This document shows positions 2,475 to 19,300 of a stretch of DNA of 19,300 nt, piece after piece. Position numbers and translations under genes: made by a program. The notes below the pieces were generated by a model. It was not told the DNA's origin and did not search any database. It was given only the letters and a program-made list of their open reading frames with translations. The DNA is taken from the UHGV virus genome UHGV-1570996. One strand, written 5' to 3'. Source of the DNA: a virus. Numbering within the stretch: the stretch's first letter is position 1; each line of letters starts with the position of its first letter.

Positions 2475-3116
2475 ATGAATTTTGACGATCAATTCCCATC
2501 AAGAGTATCTCTGGCAAGACAGTCCAGGGGTATGACGCAGGCGCAGTTGTCAAAATTAGCTGGTGTTGTTCAACGTCAAATAGCTGCATACGAGGGTGGT
2601 GAGGCTAAACCACGGCTTCGTGTATTGCAGGCATTAGCCAACGCATTAGGTACTACGGCTGAGTGGTTAGCTCTAGGTGAAGGTCAGGGTCCAGGAACAA
2701 AAAACGTCATGCCTGACGTTCTGGTAAAGCAAATACCAATTCTCAAACTAGATGAAGTTATGCATTACCTAAACACAGGTGAACATTCATCGTCTAGATT
2801 TCATCCGGCAATATACAATGTTGGTGACTCTGCATTTGCATTGACTATTGAAGGTGAAGCTATGACTACAAGTTCAGGTATTAGCTTTCCCAGAGGATCG
2901 GTTGTCACGTTCAGCCCTCTAGTAAAAGCTAAAAGCAAAGATTATGTAATAGCATCATTGGATAAAGAGCAAATATTGAGCTTCAAACAGGTTTACATTG
3001 GTGAAATAGAGACAAACCTAGTATCCCTAAACCCAATGTATCCTAATATTCTTGTTAGAAATGAAGATGTTAGTATTTTGGCAACCGCAGTTTACCTTGA
3101 AATCCCGTTGCTTTGA
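2475..3116 (+). CDS. cI/C2-like repressor: N-terminal HTH (XRE type) and C-terminal LexA/S24-like domain with catalytic Ser apparently replaced by Ala
   Basis: 213-aa ORF with GGTGA RBS; HTH region MTQAQLSKLAGVVQRQIAAYEGGEAKPRLRVLQALANALG; C-terminal EGEAMTTSSGISFPRGSVV aligns with lambda cI EGNSMTAPTGSKPSFPDG (Ser to Ala at the nucleophile), FKQV aligns with cI FKKL, and LNPMYPNI with LNPQYPMI. Confidence 0.8.
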   Translation: MNFDDQFPSRVSLARQSRGMTQAQLSKLAGVVQRQIAAYEGGEAKPRLRVLQALANALGTTAEWLALGEGQGPGTKNVMPDVLVKQIPILKLDEVMHYLNTGEHSSSRFHPAIYNVGDSAFALTIEGEAMTTSSGISFPRGSVVTFSPLVKAKSKDYVIASLDKEQILSFKQVYIGEIETNLVSLNPMYPNILVRNEDVSILATAVYLEIPLL

Positions 3117-3176
3117 TATCCTTTAGGAAGCGACACATTATCATCTGGTATCCTGCTCAAAACTAAGGAGGTTGGT

Positions 3177-3404
3177 GTGAAGCGATGGTTCCTCATAATT
3201 ACTGTTTTCGCGATCATTTACGCTATTTTCCCTGCATTAAAAGCACCAATGCAAATAATTTCACTAGCAATAATTGCAATTGGTGCTTTCATTACAGTAT
3301 CCGTACTTGTGTTTAAGGTTTTAAAGTTTTTAGTTTGGCTATCAAAAGATGATGGATGCAAAGTTCATCAAGAAAAAGAAGGCAAAATAACCAAAGTTGA
3401 CTAA
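3177..3404 (+). CDS. Small 2-TM membrane protein (75 aa) downstream of the repressor gene
   Basis: GTG start at 3177 preceded by AAGGAGG with 6-nt spacing; two hydrophobic helices (FLIITVFAIIYAIF and IISLAIIAIGAFITVSVLVF) and a charged C-terminus; its stop overlaps the stop of convergent gp16. Confidence 0.5.
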   Translation: MKRWFLIITVFAIIYAIFPALKAPMQIISLAIIAIGAFITVSVLVFKVLKFLVWLSKDDGCKVHQEKEGKITKVD

Positions 3405-15269: not shown

Positions 15270-16685
15270 TCAACCTACACCACAAGGAATTGAGTAACTG
15301 GAATAGTCGGGTTGCGCAGCCGACTCTGGGCAATGCATACACATCATCAGCGCATCAGCCAGGTTAGGGGATGGAATACCGAGCTTCTGCTTCATTTCGA
15401 CCTTAGTCATAAGCTCCAGCTTCCCGTTGTTATTGAATTTGCGCTGAATCTGCGTCAGTTCTGCAAACAGCTTCTCCAGCATCTTCTCGCCTATCGCTTC
15501 TTTGTCGAAACTCAGCATGTCGTCGGGGTCTGCATACTCACCGTGGACAACCGCCCGATATGTCAGATACAGCCTGTCAGCCAGCGCGTAATAGAATTGC
15601 GCTCGCTTATTGCGGAACACATCACCAATAGTGCGAACGTTGTCGCCCTGTACGACTTCATCAGCCCATGCTCCGGCCTGATACGGTGCATCTTCATCGA
15701 ATGGCGATTCGCTGCCCTTGAACATCGTGGCGGTGATTTTCTTGCCGGAGAACGCTTCCGTTGTCTGTCTGCGTAGGCCCGCACCGACGCCATCACCATC
15801 CCACAGGTAATGGTCAGCGCCGTCTTCAATCGCCAGCGAAGTAGCCCAGTCAGCACCCTCGTTGATGTCCATCAGCAGACCTTCGGCAATGCGCTTAACT
15901 ACCGAACCGTGACGCGATGCGTAACCTTTAGCATCTGGCCCTGTATCTGACGGGTCATGCGCAGAGACAACAGCGCCTTTCGCTTTCCATCCGAGTTTCT
16001 TGTGCGCATCGGTTGCGGCTTCAAGCCATTCACGTTTGATGATTGCCATATCACTTGCGCTTACTGGCTCACCAAGCCAGATGTGACGATACAGTGTCGG
16101 ATTTCTGCGTTTACACTCTTCCATCTCCAGACGGAGAACTTCAGGAAAATGCGGGTTGTCGGTGTAGTTCACCGTCAGCAGGCAAATATCATCGGGAGGA
16201 TTTACAACGAATCGCTGATAGGTATCGTCGAGTATGTTCTTCGGGTTAAAGCTCACCCATATTTCGGAAAACGGCTTGCGGATGGTTGGTATCAGGATAT
16301 CCCATGATTCCTTCGTTACCGCTTCCGCTTCTTCCACCCAGCAGATATCAATGCCTTCGAGCGATTTAATCTTCGTCGGGTTGTTTTTGATGCCGTAGAA
16401 CATGAACTCAGCATTCGTTCCGAGATGACGAATCATGGAACGCTGAATTTCAAACTCAGCCGTATACCCTTCACGCTCTATGGTGTCTTCAAGCAGCCGG
16501 ATTACCGAATCGCTGATACTGTTTTGCAGTTCACGAGCGCAGAGAATACGCACTGGCTGCCGACGCGCCGCTTCAACAAGCAGCCTCGCAATTGCCCATG
16601 ACTTACCGCTACCTCGACCGCCTTTGGCGACTTTGTAGCGATGCGCCTCAATAAACGGTTCAAAGATAGGATTAATCGAGGTCAT
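15270..16685 (-). CDS. Terminase large subunit
   Basis: 471 aa; Walker A-like KGGRGSGKS near the N-terminus and a C-terminal nuclease-like region; 4-nt ATGA overlap with the upstream small subunit gene. Confidence 0.85.
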   Translation of the reverse strand: MTSINPIFEPFIEAHRYKVAKGGRGSGKSWAIARLLVEAARRQPVRILCARELQNSISDSVIRLLEDTIEREGYTAEFEIQRSMIRHLGTNAEFMFYGIKNNPTKIKSLEGIDICWVEEAEAVTKESWDILIPTIRKPFSEIWVSFNPKNILDDTYQRFVVNPPDDICLLTVNYTDNPHFPEVLRLEMEECKRRNPTLYRHIWLGEPVSASDMAIIKREWLEAATDAHKKLGWKAKGAVVSAHDPSDTGPDAKGYASRHGSVVKRIAEGLLMDINEGADWATSLAIEDGADHYLWDGDGVGAGLRRQTTEAFSGKKITATMFKGSESPFDEDAPYQAGAWADEVVQGDNVRTIGDVFRNKRAQFYYALADRLYLTYRAVVHGEYADPDDMLSFDKEAIGEKMLEKLFAELTQIQRKFNNNGKLELMTKVEMKQKLGIPSPNLADALMMCMHCPESAAQPDYSSYSIPCGVG

Positions 16686-17122
16686 TTTCCGAACAGAGTG
16701 CTCATCGGTGATGTTTCAATCTGAATTGCGCCGCCGTCTTTGCCTGTTAGCTCGTGATCAACCTTGTCGCGCCATTTATCCTTCTGTCGGTTCTTAAGCC
16801 AGAAGATGGCAGCTGTTGTATCAGGCGGGTAATACTTCTCAAGCGGAGTTTCGACAATTCTGTTTTCAATAACACGAATATCGATGTCTGGAGCCACGAA
16901 GCCCATAGCGCGTTGATAAAGACGGTCACTAACTTCTGCATCAGCGACGGCCTTACCCTTTTTTATGGACTCCGAAAACTTAGGATAATCAAGCTTCCAC
17001 TTGTTAATAGTTGACTCACTGACTTCAAAGAAATCAGCAAGTTCTGCGTCTGTATAGCCCAGCAAGCACAGTTTGCGTGCCTGTTCGGCATACGCCTCTT
17101 GATACTTTGTTGGGCGCGCCAT
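16682..17122 (-). CDS. Terminase small subunit
   Basis: 146-aa ORF immediately upstream of and overlapping the large terminase; N-terminal HTH-like segment (AELADFFEVSESTINKW). Confidence 0.7.
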   Translation of the reverse strand: MARPTKYQEAYAEQARKLCLLGYTDAELADFFEVSESTINKWKLDYPKFSESIKKGKAVADAEVSDRLYQRAMGFVAPDIDIRVIENRIVETPLEKYYPPDTTAAIFWLKNRQKDKWRDKVDHELTGKDGGAIQIETSPMSTLFGK

Positions 17123-17124
17123 GT

Positions 17125-17367
17125 TTATGCTCCGGTAGTGAACAGGTCTAACGCTTCCTTCGATTTACGCACCGCTTCGATAGTTCGGGTCGTGATATCT
17201 GAATTAGCGCCGCCTGACTGGAAGTGAATTTTGAATAGCTCAAGCTTCAGTTCGTCAGTGCCAATGAACTGAAATGCTTCTTCTGCGGCTGCGTTCTGGT
17301 TCATGACCAGTTTGTAAATCTCTAACTGGAATTTCTGTTCTTGAGTCATGGGAATAATCTCTGCCAT
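17125..17367 (-). CDS. Hypothetical 80-aa protein upstream of small terminase (P22 orf80-position)
   Basis: ORF with GGAG RBS 9 nt upstream of ATG 17367; stop 2 nt before the terS start; no family recognised. Confidence 0.5.
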   Translation of the reverse strand: MAEIIPMTQEQKFQLEIYKLVMNQNAAAEEAFQFIGTDELKLELFKIHFQSGGANSDITTRTIEAVRKSKEALDLFTTGA

Positions 17368-17380
17368 TGTTGGCTCCGTT

Positions 17381-17414
17381 TATCCGTTAAAAGGGATATC
17401 AGTTAAGTTATCCC
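17381..17414 (-). promoter_or_regulatory. Alternating hairpin element in the leader of the orf80-terminase operon
   Basis: Three arms TATCC (17381-17385), GGGATA (17393-17398) and TATCCC (17409-17414) can form two mutually exclusive hairpins; the upstream hairpin is followed by UUUU on the minus strand, and the element ends about 13 nt before the orf80 RBS. Confidence 0.3.
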
Positions 17415-17694
17415 GTGTAGGGTATAAGCCATTGTCGAGACCACTCATTGAATGGCCTCTGCAATAACCGATGTCTTTCCATCAGTCCGCCACCACAAAG
17501 AATCTTTTTTGCCATAAGGCAGGAGGTTCATCTTTCAGTGGCTGCCAGTGTTATTTCCCCACTTACTGGCTTGGGTTGCTTCGTGGTACTGCCGTTAACT
17601 GGTGGCCCAGAATAAATTCCGGTTTCATTATCAAGCCCACCCGTAGATGGGCTTTGTAATGAAGAGTTGTTATGAAAATTGCTCTAAACAAGCA

Positions 17695-18183
17695 TTAATA
17701 GCCATCAGAAGTAATCGCTACAGATTTCAATCCCTCAATGTCATCCTTGGACAGGGCGAACCATTCACCGTGCTTTCTCTTTGCGGCAAATTTGCGATGA
17801 AGCATGTTTTCAGTTTCTCTTCCACCAGGGATCAGGCACTCAAGCTTCAAGCAGTCTGGTCCAGAGTTGCCAAGCGATTTGATGCGTTGTGGAATGTTGG
17901 ATGAATACCCAATTTTGGTTAGCCCAGTTTTCTTCGATGACAAAACGTATACCTGAGGAGGTTCTTTTCTCTGGTCTTCCATTACACGTCTCATTGTTGC
18001 CATAAGTCCGCCGTGCATCAGCATTTCAACAAAGAACGCTGACCGAACACCTGACGACTTAAGCATGCCAGAAAATTCACTTGCCAATTCCATTAACTCT
18101 GCGATGTTTTCAGGAACTTTTTGGCAGTTATCTTCCTTGTATAAGGAAATCATTCTTTGAAGCTTTTCTTCTAATTGGTTCAT
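17695..18183 (-). CDS. T5orf172 (GIY-YIG-like) domain protein, stand-alone accessory gene
   Basis: Start chosen at ATG 18183, 162 aa; C-terminal half VYVLSSKKTGLTKIGYSSNIPQRIKSLGNSGPDCLKLECLIPGGRETENMLHRKFAAKRKHGEWFALS fits the T5orf172 pattern (YV..KIG..R...L....E..LH..F...GEWF); flanked by 347-bp and 327-bp non-coding regions; visibly more AT-rich than neighbours. Confidence 0.7.
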   Translation of the reverse strand: MNQLEEKLQRMISLYKEDNCQKVPENIAELMELASEFSGMLKSSGVRSAFFVEMLMHGGLMATMRRVMEDQRKEPPQVYVLSSKKTGLTKIGYSSNIPQRIKSLGNSGPDCLKLECLIPGGRETENMLHRKFAAKRKHGEWFALSKDDIEGLKSVAITSDGY

Positions 18184-18294
18184 AGCGTCTTTACCTTTTA
18201 GAAAGTGAGCCTGTCTCACAGAAAAGCCGCCCCGAGATGGTCGCCACCATATACGGCAGTTCTCAGGCTCAACTTTCTGAAAGGCTCGGGTGAT

Positions 18295-18322
18295 GTAATA
18301 TGCGCGTGAGATGCGCTGTGAA
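18295..18322 (-). promoter_or_regulatory. Candidate sigma70 promoter for the T5orf172-domain gene
   Basis: Minus-strand -35 TTCACA (plus 18322-18317), 16-bp spacer, -10 TATTAC (plus 18300-18295), just downstream of the post-Rz terminator; a GTGAG-N5-CTCAC inverted repeat (18205-18219) lies in the predicted leader. Confidence 0.3.
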
Positions 18323-18332
18323 ATTCAGATGT

Positions 18333-18356
18333 AAAAAAGCCCCGCGAATGCGAGGC
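18333..18356 (-). terminator. Rho-independent terminator downstream of the lysis cassette
   Basis: Minus strand: GCCUCGC-AUUC-GCGGGGC (one G-U pair) followed by UUUUUU. Confidence 0.55.
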
Positions 18357-18530
18357 TAAATCCTGGTGTTTGTGATGACTGGCTCTTATCTCAACGCAGC
18401 CCCTTACCGCGCGCCAGATGCTCAATATCAAGCATCAGCAATGAGATGTTTAATCTGGATTCACTCCAGAAGTGATCACCACCCTGTCTACAGAGCCAGA
18501 TGTGAAGGATGATGAGTAAAATTATCGCTA

Positions 18531-18998
18531 TCATCGAAGGCATTGCGTCCTGATGTATTCCTGAAGCGTTCTCAGTGCTGTTTGGTCGCTGATGATTCCG
18601 TCCCGGATACCGAGAACGTTTCGTCCAGCAACTGGAGAGAGTTCGACGGTGGCATCATTGCCCATGCCGGAGGCGCTGGAGGTTTCGGCTGAGGATGGCA
18701 TAGGGCATTTTCCTTTGACGAACACCCGACCACCATTATCAAGCTTGCGCCGAAGAGCATCATTTTCAGCTTTCGCATCAGCTAACTCCTTCGTGTATTT
18801 AGCATCGAGTGCATCAGCAGAACGCTGGCGCTGCTGCATGTCAGTAATGGTGGCGGTCGCCTGCTTCAGCTCACTGACTTTTTTATCTCGCTGTTCTTTG
18901 TAGGCGATGGCGTTATCACGGTAATGATTAACCGCCCATGACAGGAAGACGATGATGCAGATAACCAGAGCGGAGATAATCGCGGTTACTCTGCTCAT
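18531..18998 (-). CDS. Rz: Rz i-spanin (lambda Rz-like)
   Basis: N-terminal [39 protein letters not shown]...[22 protein letters not shown] is near-identical to recalled lambda Rz; start ATG overlaps the endolysin stop (ATGA). Confidence 0.9.
18572..18778 (-). CDS. Rz1: Rz1 o-spanin lipoprotein, embedded in the +1 frame of Rz
   Basis: [21 protein letters not shown] lipobox plus proline-rich [16 protein letters not shown], matching recalled lambda Rz1 (MLKLKMML...VVGCTS...PPPPPAWIMQPPP); entirely inside Rz. Confidence 0.85.
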
Positions 18999-19300
18999 AC
19001 CTCAATCTCTCTGACCGTTCCGCCTGCTTCTTTGAATTTTGCAATCAGGTTGTCAGCCTTATGCTCGAACTGACCATAACCAGCGCCAGGCAGTGAAGCC
19101 CAGATATTGCTGCAACGGTCGATTGCCTGACGGATATCACCGCGATCAATCATCGGCAAAGCGCCACGCTCCTTAATCTGCTGCAGCGCAACAGCGTCCT
19201 GGCTTTTGGGAGAGAAGTCTTTCAGGCCAAGCTGCTTACGGTAGGCATCCCACCAACGGGAAAGAAGCTGGTAGCGTCCGGCAGCTGTTGATTTGAGTTT
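18995..19300 (-). CDS. R: Endolysin, lambda R-like lytic transglycosylase (partial; N-terminus beyond the window)
   Basis: Translation of the minus strand from 19300: [101 protein letters not shown], near-identical to the recalled lambda R C-terminus. Confidence 0.9.

Follow-up and report, generated by a model that had tools for sequence, protein, structure and literature searches.

In the lambdoid phages, comparison of HK97 and HK022 brought to light the morons, inserted genes with their own promoter and terminator. Phage proteins with a T5orf172 domain have been described in lytic vibriophages, where Odn (Gp88) and the homing-endonuclease genes of ICP1 combine a C-terminal T5orf172 domain, with conserved Arg and Glu and without the helix-1 His/Tyr, with an N-terminal accessory domain, often near terminase (PMC8263062, PMC10448857). 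Here we describe a gene for a two-domain T5orf172 protein of 162 residues on the minus strand of the virus genome UHGV-1570996, whose 19,300-nucleotide (nt) stretch, referred to as the window, was studied by sequence, database and modelling analysis. As a first-pass annotation of the window had proposed, the open reading frame (ORF) lies between the lysis and terminase modules; its neighbours are Rz and DUF2560/terS. Its product shares the domain order and conserved residues of the ICP1 proteins. Whereas those carry RepA_N or Zn-finger (CapR, DUF723, DUF4397) DNA-binding domains, no DNA-binding domain is recognisable in the window protein, whose N-terminal part is an acidic bundle of three helices and whose gene belongs to a temperate lambdoid phage, within its late operon.

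The gene itself is already deposited. It is an uncharacterised member of the known phage T5orf172 nucleases in a known mosaic region, and its presence is routine lambdoid mosaicism. HK106 gp64 (YP_007151734), its homologue in Chlobot and the E. coli prophage protein WP_016245257 are 99.4-100% identical to the window protein and occupy the same place behind Rz and a terminator, whereas the virion and packaging modules downstream are HK97-like and lambda-like in these relatives and P22-like in the window. The near-identical relatives go by the names "hypothetical protein" or "GIY-YIG nuclease family protein", and the gene falls into PHROG 4284, a group without an assigned function. A second form, epsilon34 gp68 and g341c gp64 (cluster P0017), has the same two-domain architecture in the same slot behind a leader that is 89% identical, but the protein is only 33% identical to that of the window. 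We take it to be a deeply diverged allele, and the family must therefore have been resident in the slot for a long time.

The same slot, terminator and hairpin leader also serve Rha (P22 orf201 type, Phage_pRha+ORF11CD3) and KilA-N genes (in HK620, hkbK followed by hkbL). The effector domains of these proteins are DNA-binding (winged-helix or KilA-N) and not nucleases, while the small hkbL-type protein is homologous to the N-terminal domain (N-domain) of the window protein. T5orf172 is not among the ten Pfam families that define the Bro-N network (PMC10111431), and the only Pfam domains found in the window protein were MUG113 and T5orf172. The association with the network is indirect, through the common slot, leader and N-domain and through Bro-N+T5orf172 fusions elsewhere, such as P0044. 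Compared with GIY-YIG nucleases of solved structure (SLX1/HIGLE, the I-TevI catalytic domain, the UvrC N-terminal domain, UPF0213), the window protein falls below the Pfam GIY-YIG threshold, has Lys for the second Tyr and has other partner domains. The locus resembles a moron in that an extra gene of somewhat deviant GC content, bracketed by hairpins, is present or absent between conserved neighbours. It differs in that no promoter was detected and the intrinsic terminator lies upstream, the hairpin behind the gene having no U-tract; expression is expected from late read-through and not from the prophage.

The gene occupies a slot of exchangeable cassettes

Judged from its distribution and junctions, the T5orf172 gene was acquired as an exchangeable module and represents one of the alleles found in a hypervariable slot for accessory genes in lambdoid/P22-like temperate phages. 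To define the slot, 80 IMG/VR loci anchored on DUF2560 were sorted by their content between Rz and DUF2560. Rha (Phage_pRha+ORF11CD3) was present in 28 loci and a second Rha type in 2; KilA-N+ORF11CD3 followed by an N-domain protein accounted for 8, other KilA-N proteins for 8, and a protein with a Tad2-like (Thoeris anti-defence) domain for 4. The epsilon34-type T5orf172 gene was found in 2 loci and the window type in 1, while about 10 loci had no cassette. The first-pass annotation had seen an acquired module here, and the sporadic occurrence agrees with this: besides the single DUF2560 locus, the gene is present in 80 of 5,426 complete E. coli genomes (8 of them with the exact arrangement of the window) and in few phage records, and a presence/absence comparison at the junction between lysis genes and terS showed that it is not universal in P22-like genomes. 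Among 50,697 phage records, the window-type protein occurs in HK106 and Chlobot only and the 33%-identical paralogue in epsilon34, g341c and NM-3. The leader is far more widespread, being matched by megablast in 906 of the E. coli genomes.

In a second IMG/VR scan of viral contigs, anchored on the T5orf172 protein family, the window-type gene was recovered in about 21 lambda-like contexts (with DUF1398, YlcI and nohD downstream), about 17 P22-like contexts with two terS types, and 1 HK97-like context, always behind Rz where upstream DNA was available. A family scan of a genome collection with one genome per species gave 2 loci only. The ORF showed no blastn mismatch (printed as 100%) among the window, HK106, Chlobot and E. 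coli prophages, while the leader of HK106 is only 85% identical to that of the window and the Rz genes barely align. The coding cassette therefore moves independently of its surroundings. From the alignments, its joints are at the ATG and near a hairpin downstream of the gene (hairpin 2, 17663-17624); in the alignment of filled and empty alleles, the empty and Tad2-like alleles also join at hairpin 2. Two deletion-fusion derivatives, P0031 and P0081, were seen, one with the first 107 residues of an epsilon34-type nuclease fused in frame to DUF2560 and the other with an Rz fragment joined to the last part of the nuclease, which is evidence that the cassette decays in some prophages.

By the same comparisons, the true start codon is the ATG at 18183 (162 residues), and not the GTG at 18219 from which the first ORF listing had run the gene (174 residues), because the conservation common to the other cassettes ends exactly at ATGAA and the sequences diverge after it. 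Deposited homologues are likewise 162 residues long. In many gene calls the Rha and T5orf172 ORFs run back into the leader, which creates false N-terminal extensions that end in ...FLKGKDA (e.g., P0001, P0003 and P0023, and the Rha ORF in L040:1747-2358), an annotation artefact that arises because the common leader is in frame.

A lower GC content than that of the neighbours had also been claimed. This stands, but the difference is modest: the T5orf172 ORF has 42.9%, compared with 51.7% for Rz, 51.5% for terL, 45.3% for DUF2560, 46.9% for terS and 47.8% for the whole window. The ratio of nonsynonymous to synonymous substitution rates (dN/dS) is about 0.14 against 87%-identical relatives and alike in both domains, so the protein is under purifying selection and is no decaying remnant.

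The gene order on the minus strand, 5' to 3', is lysozyme (cut by the window end), Rz with embedded Rz1, a 50-residue ORF, terminator, leader, T5orf172 ORF, a 327-nt spacer, DUF2560, terS, terL and portal. The features of the locus are as follows.

18531-18998, minus strand: Rz i-spanin (Pfam Phage_lysis, E 4.5e-29, and ORF list), which ends the lysis genes and bounds the slot on the left
18778-18572, minus strand: Rz1, embedded in Rz
18391-18543, minus strand: conserved 50-residue ORF (phrog_11822, E 3.9e-38), equal to Sf6 gene 65 and epsilon34 gp67
18332-18357, minus strand: intrinsic terminator from a terminator scan, with an 8-base-pair stem (6 GC pairs), a 4-nt loop and a T6 run
18184-18331, minus strand: 5' leader of about 150 nt, assigned to the slot and common to Rha and KilA-N cassettes
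18285-18193, minus strand: predicted leader hairpin of about 95 nt, in which CCUUU at the base pairs with the AAAGG Shine-Dalgarno sequence (18197-18194)
18183-17695, minus strand: T5orf172 ORF, 162 residues, between Rz and DUF2560/terS
17968-18183, minus strand: N-domain, residues 1-72, a modelled three-helix bundle with an isoelectric point of 5.3 and no Pfam family
17695-17967, minus strand: C-terminal T5orf172/MUG113 domain, residues 73-162 and stop codon, a putative nuclease of the GIY-YIG superfamily
17624-17663, minus strand: hairpin 2, folded as GCCCA-loop-TGGGC extended by UUCAUUA/UAAUGAA, without a U-tract; a recurrent right-hand junction of the slot
17368-17623, minus strand: mosaic conserved spacer upstream of DUF2560, with segmental matches and strong predicted RNA structure
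17125-17367, minus strand: DUF2560 gene of the HK620 hkbM type (Pfam DUF2560, E 3.4e-43), right border of the slot in P22-like genomes
16682-17122, minus strand: terS of the 146-residue helix-turn-helix type, with sub-threshold Pfam matches only

The long non-coding flanks that had been ascribed to the gene were not confirmed. Its upstream side is taken up by the 50-residue ORF, the terminator and the structured leader. The 50-residue ORF has a hydrophobic N terminus, its start overlaps the end of Rz, and it is present in 37 surveyed loci (about half of the related loci). Downstream, the 327-nt flank contains no convincing ORF and is a mosaic whose segments are conserved in P22-like phages with or without the T5orf172 gene, with breakpoints at flank positions 32, 86-91 and 225-230. 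Hairpin 2, behind the gene, is present in empty alleles too. An imperfect 10-nt direct repeat (TCATCACAAA at 18378-18369 and TCATTACAAA at 17662-17653) brackets the unit of terminator, leader and gene. The immediate flanks showed no polymorphism confined to genomes with the gene. The ORF and the downstream flank have short direct repeats in common, which were discarded as chance; 34 of 300 shuffles reached the local alignment score.

There is a second insertion point at about 17470, where relatives often carry a gp49/Sf6-gene-66-like gene or other small genes; in epsilon34, a remnant resembling the N terminus of ST64T orf118 is annotated in the downstream spacer. The spacer (17700-17360) is predicted to be unusually structured as RNA, with a minimum free energy (MFE) z-score of -5.3. 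In other P22-like relatives with this DUF2560 gene, a terS of the P22 gp3 type takes the place of the window type, which places DUF2560 itself at a recombination boundary. The Tad2-like occupant (173 residues, Pfam E 4e-26) was found in the four related loci L011, L028, L032 and L079 (e.g., L028:2176-2697), and in the phage record Huey anti-CRISPR genes are annotated in a stretch matching the slot region near the second insertion point. The Rz-terminase junction may be an anti-defence hot spot.

A conserved leader RNA belongs to the slot

The terminator that had been predicted upstream of the gene is present as an intrinsic terminator at 18357-18332; a rho-independent terminator is annotated at the equivalent place in HK106 and epsilon34, and it is retained in some loci without a cassette. 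By contrast with the terminator, the candidate promoter that had been attributed to the gene was not supported. No sigma-70-like promoter was found at 16600-19300 on either strand (0 against 3.4 in shuffles) in a scan confined to sigma-70 consensus sites, manual inspection of the leader revealed only poor promoter hexamers, and the roughly 150 nt upstream of the ATG proved to be a leader common to unrelated genes. Matches to the IHF consensus were considered too and set aside: the window has 29 one-mismatch matches against 20 expected, and the site over the start codon (18172-18184) is not meaningful. Comparison across the cassettes assigns both the terminator and the 5' leader to the slot and not to the T5orf172 gene; the same leader precedes Rha and KilA-N genes up to the ATG.

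A long hairpin is predicted for the 113 nt that run through the start codon (MFE z-score of -4.1; a further leader fold gave -3.7), and the same hairpin was obtained from five of six divergent variants folded alone, including Enterobacter-type leaders of very different sequence. A covariance model, R1, was built from four E. coli and Salmonella leader variants. It matched directly 5' of the ATG in 78 of 80 T5orf172-family loci, down to 30% protein identity; in the other two, the locus lacks upstream DNA. R1 matches also precede most Rha and KilA-N cassettes, including ones that blastn had missed, as well as other accessory genes of the late operon, for example an HNH_3 gene between Q and holin (L089) and genes for 198-residue and 246-residue proteins (L088 and L087, respectively).

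The R1 alignment (53 distinct sequences) has compensatory double changes in 29 of 34 pairs, and 92.5% of its cells are paired, compared with 75.5% after shuffling and at most 50% with the 3' partners slid; none of 500 shuffles reached any observed measure. Pairing in this alignment is inflated, since its sequences were fitted to the structure of the model, but 5 compensatory pairs were still present when leaders were aligned plainly with MAFFT. A first, closely related leader set had yielded 1 compensatory pair only, and the divergent Enterobacter-type leaders together with the covariance model were needed to go beyond this. An Rfam scan of 16600-19300 at E values up to 1 returned no match. 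We conclude that the leader forms a conserved RNA structure that is a property of the slot. It is a candidate for a new cis-regulatory RNA in the late operons of lambdoid phages and has no Rfam family. Its most economical function would be to restrict translation of the downstream accessory gene; a role as an RNase III processing site is a candidate alternative. Among the slot-mates, rha (P22 orf201) is described as part of the late operon and as harmful to phage growth once its IHF regulation is lost (PMC4936722), which fits a need for tight control in the slot.

The C-terminal domain resembles GIY-YIG nucleases

The T5orf172 domain of the first-pass annotation held in profile searches, with MUG113 (PF13455; E 7e-15, 55.7 bits against a cut-off of 22.3) and T5orf172 (PF10544; E 3e-10, 40.8 bits against a cut-off of 20) both above their Pfam thresholds. 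An AlphaFold model computed with 66 homologues has a predicted local distance difference test (pLDDT) score of 91. Residues 3-71 form three long helices, and residues 77-155 a domain of beta-beta-alpha-beta-alpha-beta-alpha topology. The best matches of the modelled C-terminal domain are GIY-YIG nucleases, and the model contains the beta-beta-alpha-beta-alpha core fold of that superfamily. Profile searches of the PDB gave weak matches, almost all of them to GIY-YIG proteins, with VY...KIG...R aligned to the motif.

In an alignment of 66 sequences Y79, K90, G92, R100, E125, H129, W141 and F142 are invariant, and in one of 101 sequences Y79, K90, G92, R100, E125 and F142 remain so, with H129 and W141 nearly invariant. 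With I-TevI as the reference, Y79 is taken to correspond to the GIY tyrosine, R100 to the catalytic arginine and E125 to the metal-binding glutamate. From conservation and model together, the catalytic core seems intact, and the most likely function of the C-terminal domain is that of an active DNA endonuclease that depends on metal. ICP1 Odn, the sole T5orf172 protein tested biochemically, is a nuclease, and its activity is lost in the E180A mutant, which affects the equivalent glutamate (PMC8263062).

A PADLOC search matched only PDC-S57, a candidate system, with E 7e-6 over residues 73-146, i.e., the T5orf172 domain alone. Distant T5orf172 domains (in Mx8 p19, in Acinetobacter and Mycolicibacterium phages and in the Sphingopyxis phage VSN-002) fall within features that carry the annotation of a replication initiator, a DnaD-like helicase loader or, in one case, a DnaB-like helicase, and recall Odn, a RepA_N-T5orf172 chimera.

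The N-terminal domain is shared with partners of KilA-N genes

A helical N-terminal domain of no known family had been anticipated, and this was borne out by the AlphaFold helices and by the lack of any Pfam match for this mildly acidic domain (isoelectric point 5.3). A profile of the domain collected 146 proteins, mostly free-standing, of about 75-90 residues, among them HK97p61; the free-standing proteins come from prophages of Escherichia, Enterobacter, Citrobacter, Klebsiella and Salmonella. When the N-domain was compared with one free-standing protein using hhalign, the probability was 95% (E 2e-8). In 8 of 8 places examined (L086-L093, ~3001-3264), the small N-domain gene lies directly behind a KilA-N gene (KilA-N+ORF11CD3 or KilA-N+P63C), and the two reading frames overlap in the 4 places with the ORF11CD3 type. 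The pair is located in the Rz-terminase slot as well, and the terminase that follows is of at least five different types. The free-standing form has a Lys/Arg-rich tail at the position where the fusion has the basic nuclease domain. The domain may be an oligomerisation or partner-binding module rather than a sequence-specific DNA reader. The N-domain ties the nuclease to KilA-N modules and suggests a common partner.

Proposed role and alternative explanations

As the best overall explanation we tentatively favour a late-expressed, translationally throttled accessory DNA endonuclease in the hypervariable Rz-terminase slot, an account that we would put somewhat short of an even chance. Transcription would start from the late promoter, with antiterminated polymerase reading through the terminator, and would thus be confined to late lytic growth; this is suggested by the missing promoter, by the position and orientation of the gene and by the intrinsic terminator upstream. 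The hairpin of about 95 nt, by pairing with the Shine-Dalgarno sequence, would hold translation at a low level, and it may serve any occupant, whether Rha, KilA-N or T5orf172. The product would combine a GIY-YIG-type DNA endonuclease with a three-helix partner or oligomerisation domain. Its target, the least certain step, would probably be non-self DNA in lytic growth, i.e., a co-resident prophage, a satellite or a co-infecting relative, and a possible by-product would be homing-like spread of the cassette via the conserved flanks. The usual surroundings of phage T5orf172 genes are terminase genes and the borders of exchanged segments (PMC10448857).

Several observations weigh against this account, in addition to the fitted covariation alignment mentioned above. 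The Pfam GIY-YIG model (PF01541) scores below threshold (12.5 bits against a cut-off of 22.6, E 0.18, residues 89-116 only), and the protein is therefore placed in the superfamily through its fold and its match to the related T5orf172 model. The invariant K90 stands where the second GIY-YIG tyrosine would be, and, like Odn (PMC8263062), the protein lacks the helix-1 His/Tyr. No sequence-specific DNA-binding domain was found in the protein, and the Zn-finger DNA-binding domains that occur in 87% of surveyed phage T5orf172 homing-endonuclease genes (PMC10448857) are missing here. Finally, a weak or unusual promoter may exist.

The gene could instead be a classic free-standing homing endonuclease gene, which would cut a specific site at or near the Rz-terminase junction of gene-less genomes, be copied in by repair via its conserved flanks and have its own spread as its only function. 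RBS-sequestering (ribosome-binding site) hairpins, as seen in this leader, are typical of T4 homing-endonuclease genes, and the conserved flanks could serve as homology arms. Sporadic presence at one position (1 of 80 DUF2560 loci, with about 10 empty, and 80 of 5,426 E. coli genomes), mismatch-free ORFs in unrelated backbones and the decayed derivatives P0031 and P0081 also fit, and T5orf172 is an established putative homing-endonuclease family, with a terminase gene in 35% of neighbourhoods and a location at recombination boundaries (PMC10448857). We nevertheless consider this unlikely, since the protein has no sequence-specific DNA-binding module and its N-domain, a generic bundle of helices with acidic character, also occurs apart from any nuclease. 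Moreover, the non-nuclease cassettes Rha, KilA-N and Tad2-like share the junctions and the leader, and such mosaicism needs no nuclease of this kind. The occupation of one slot by two alleles that are only 33% identical, together with a dN/dS of 0.14, speaks for long-term selection on the protein, and the immediate flanks show no polymorphism private to gene-bearing genomes. A selfish homing-type element and a nuclease against rival DNA are not mutually exclusive readings.

That the protein is a catalytically silent, domesticated DNA-binding regulator, an analogue of Rha and KilA-N acting perhaps like an antirepressor or as a late-gene modulator, with the T5orf172 fold serving for DNA binding only, seems distinctly unlikely to us. 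It would agree with the slot and leader held in common with Rha and KilA-N proteins of the Bro-N network (PMC10111431), with an N-domain found also in the partner of KilA-N genes and with the Bro-N+T5orf172 fusion P0044, and it was the frequent fusion to Bro-N or KilA-N that originally led to the prediction of DNA binding for T5orf172 (PMC8096241). However, the Tyr, Arg and Glu catalytic positions of GIY-YIG are invariant in 101 diverse homologues, the one T5orf172 protein with tested biochemistry is a nuclease that requires that Glu (PMC8263062), and domesticated CapR retained its DNA-binding domain and not its T5orf172 domain (PMC8096241). We regard as still less probable a lysogenic-conversion or defence moron, in which the prophage would make a nuclease that destroys incoming phage DNA (superinfection exclusion). 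The GC content somewhat below that of the neighbours, the moron-like bracketing by terminator and hairpin and the weak, domain-level match to PDC-S57 in PADLOC (E 7e-6) are in its favour, but that match is restricted to the T5orf172 domain, and the leader is common to Rha, which in P22 is encoded by a late-operon gene (PMC4936722). Since the gene stands behind an intrinsic terminator within the late operon, with its Shine-Dalgarno sequence sequestered and no sigma-70-like promoter at 16600-19300, expression from the prophage is unlikely. Least probable by far is a packaging accessory nuclease that helps terminase in the manner of the HNH protein HK97 gp74: the gene is immediately upstream of the terminase genes, and in HK106 it adjoins a gp74-like HNH gene, yet HK106 retains that HNH gene of its own, and the T5orf172 gene occurs in a small minority of near-identical packaging modules and with three unrelated terminase systems.

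It is tempting to speculate further that the Rz-terminase slot is a dedicated conflict locus of lambdoid phages, in which a portable leader gates the late translation of interchangeable effectors, the three-helix domain (fused in the window protein, free-standing beside KilA-N genes) acts as an adaptor that links the various effector heads to one partner or target, and the T5orf172 protein is the nuclease arm against co-resident prophages, satellites or host defences. This would be by analogy with ICP1 Odn, with the Tad2-like slot genes and with the anti-CRISPR genes of one phage record, and we judge it improbable as it stands.

Implications

The context of the locus is more useful than the gene, and the leader RNA is the more novel by-product. 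We found no description of the slot-wide hairpin leader in Rfam or the literature searched, nor, in the literature searched, of the N-domain shared with KilA-N partner proteins or of an Rz-terminase junction collecting Bro-network, Tad2-like and nuclease cassettes. Because it holds a small set of interchangeable cassettes (Rha, KilA-N with its small partner, a T5orf172 nuclease and a Tad2-like anti-Thoeris gene), the lysis-packaging junction is a practical place to look for phage conflict genes. The leader, common to all these cassettes, is an undescribed candidate regulatory RNA that hides the ribosome-binding site and covaries strongly. If the slot were indeed a conflict locus, the leader would define a new cis-regulatory RNA class, with members in roughly one in six complete E. 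coli genomes. Odn is used against PLE; if the protein described here is an active nuclease with a defined target, the idea of a phage nuclease directed against rival elements would extend to temperate coliphages.

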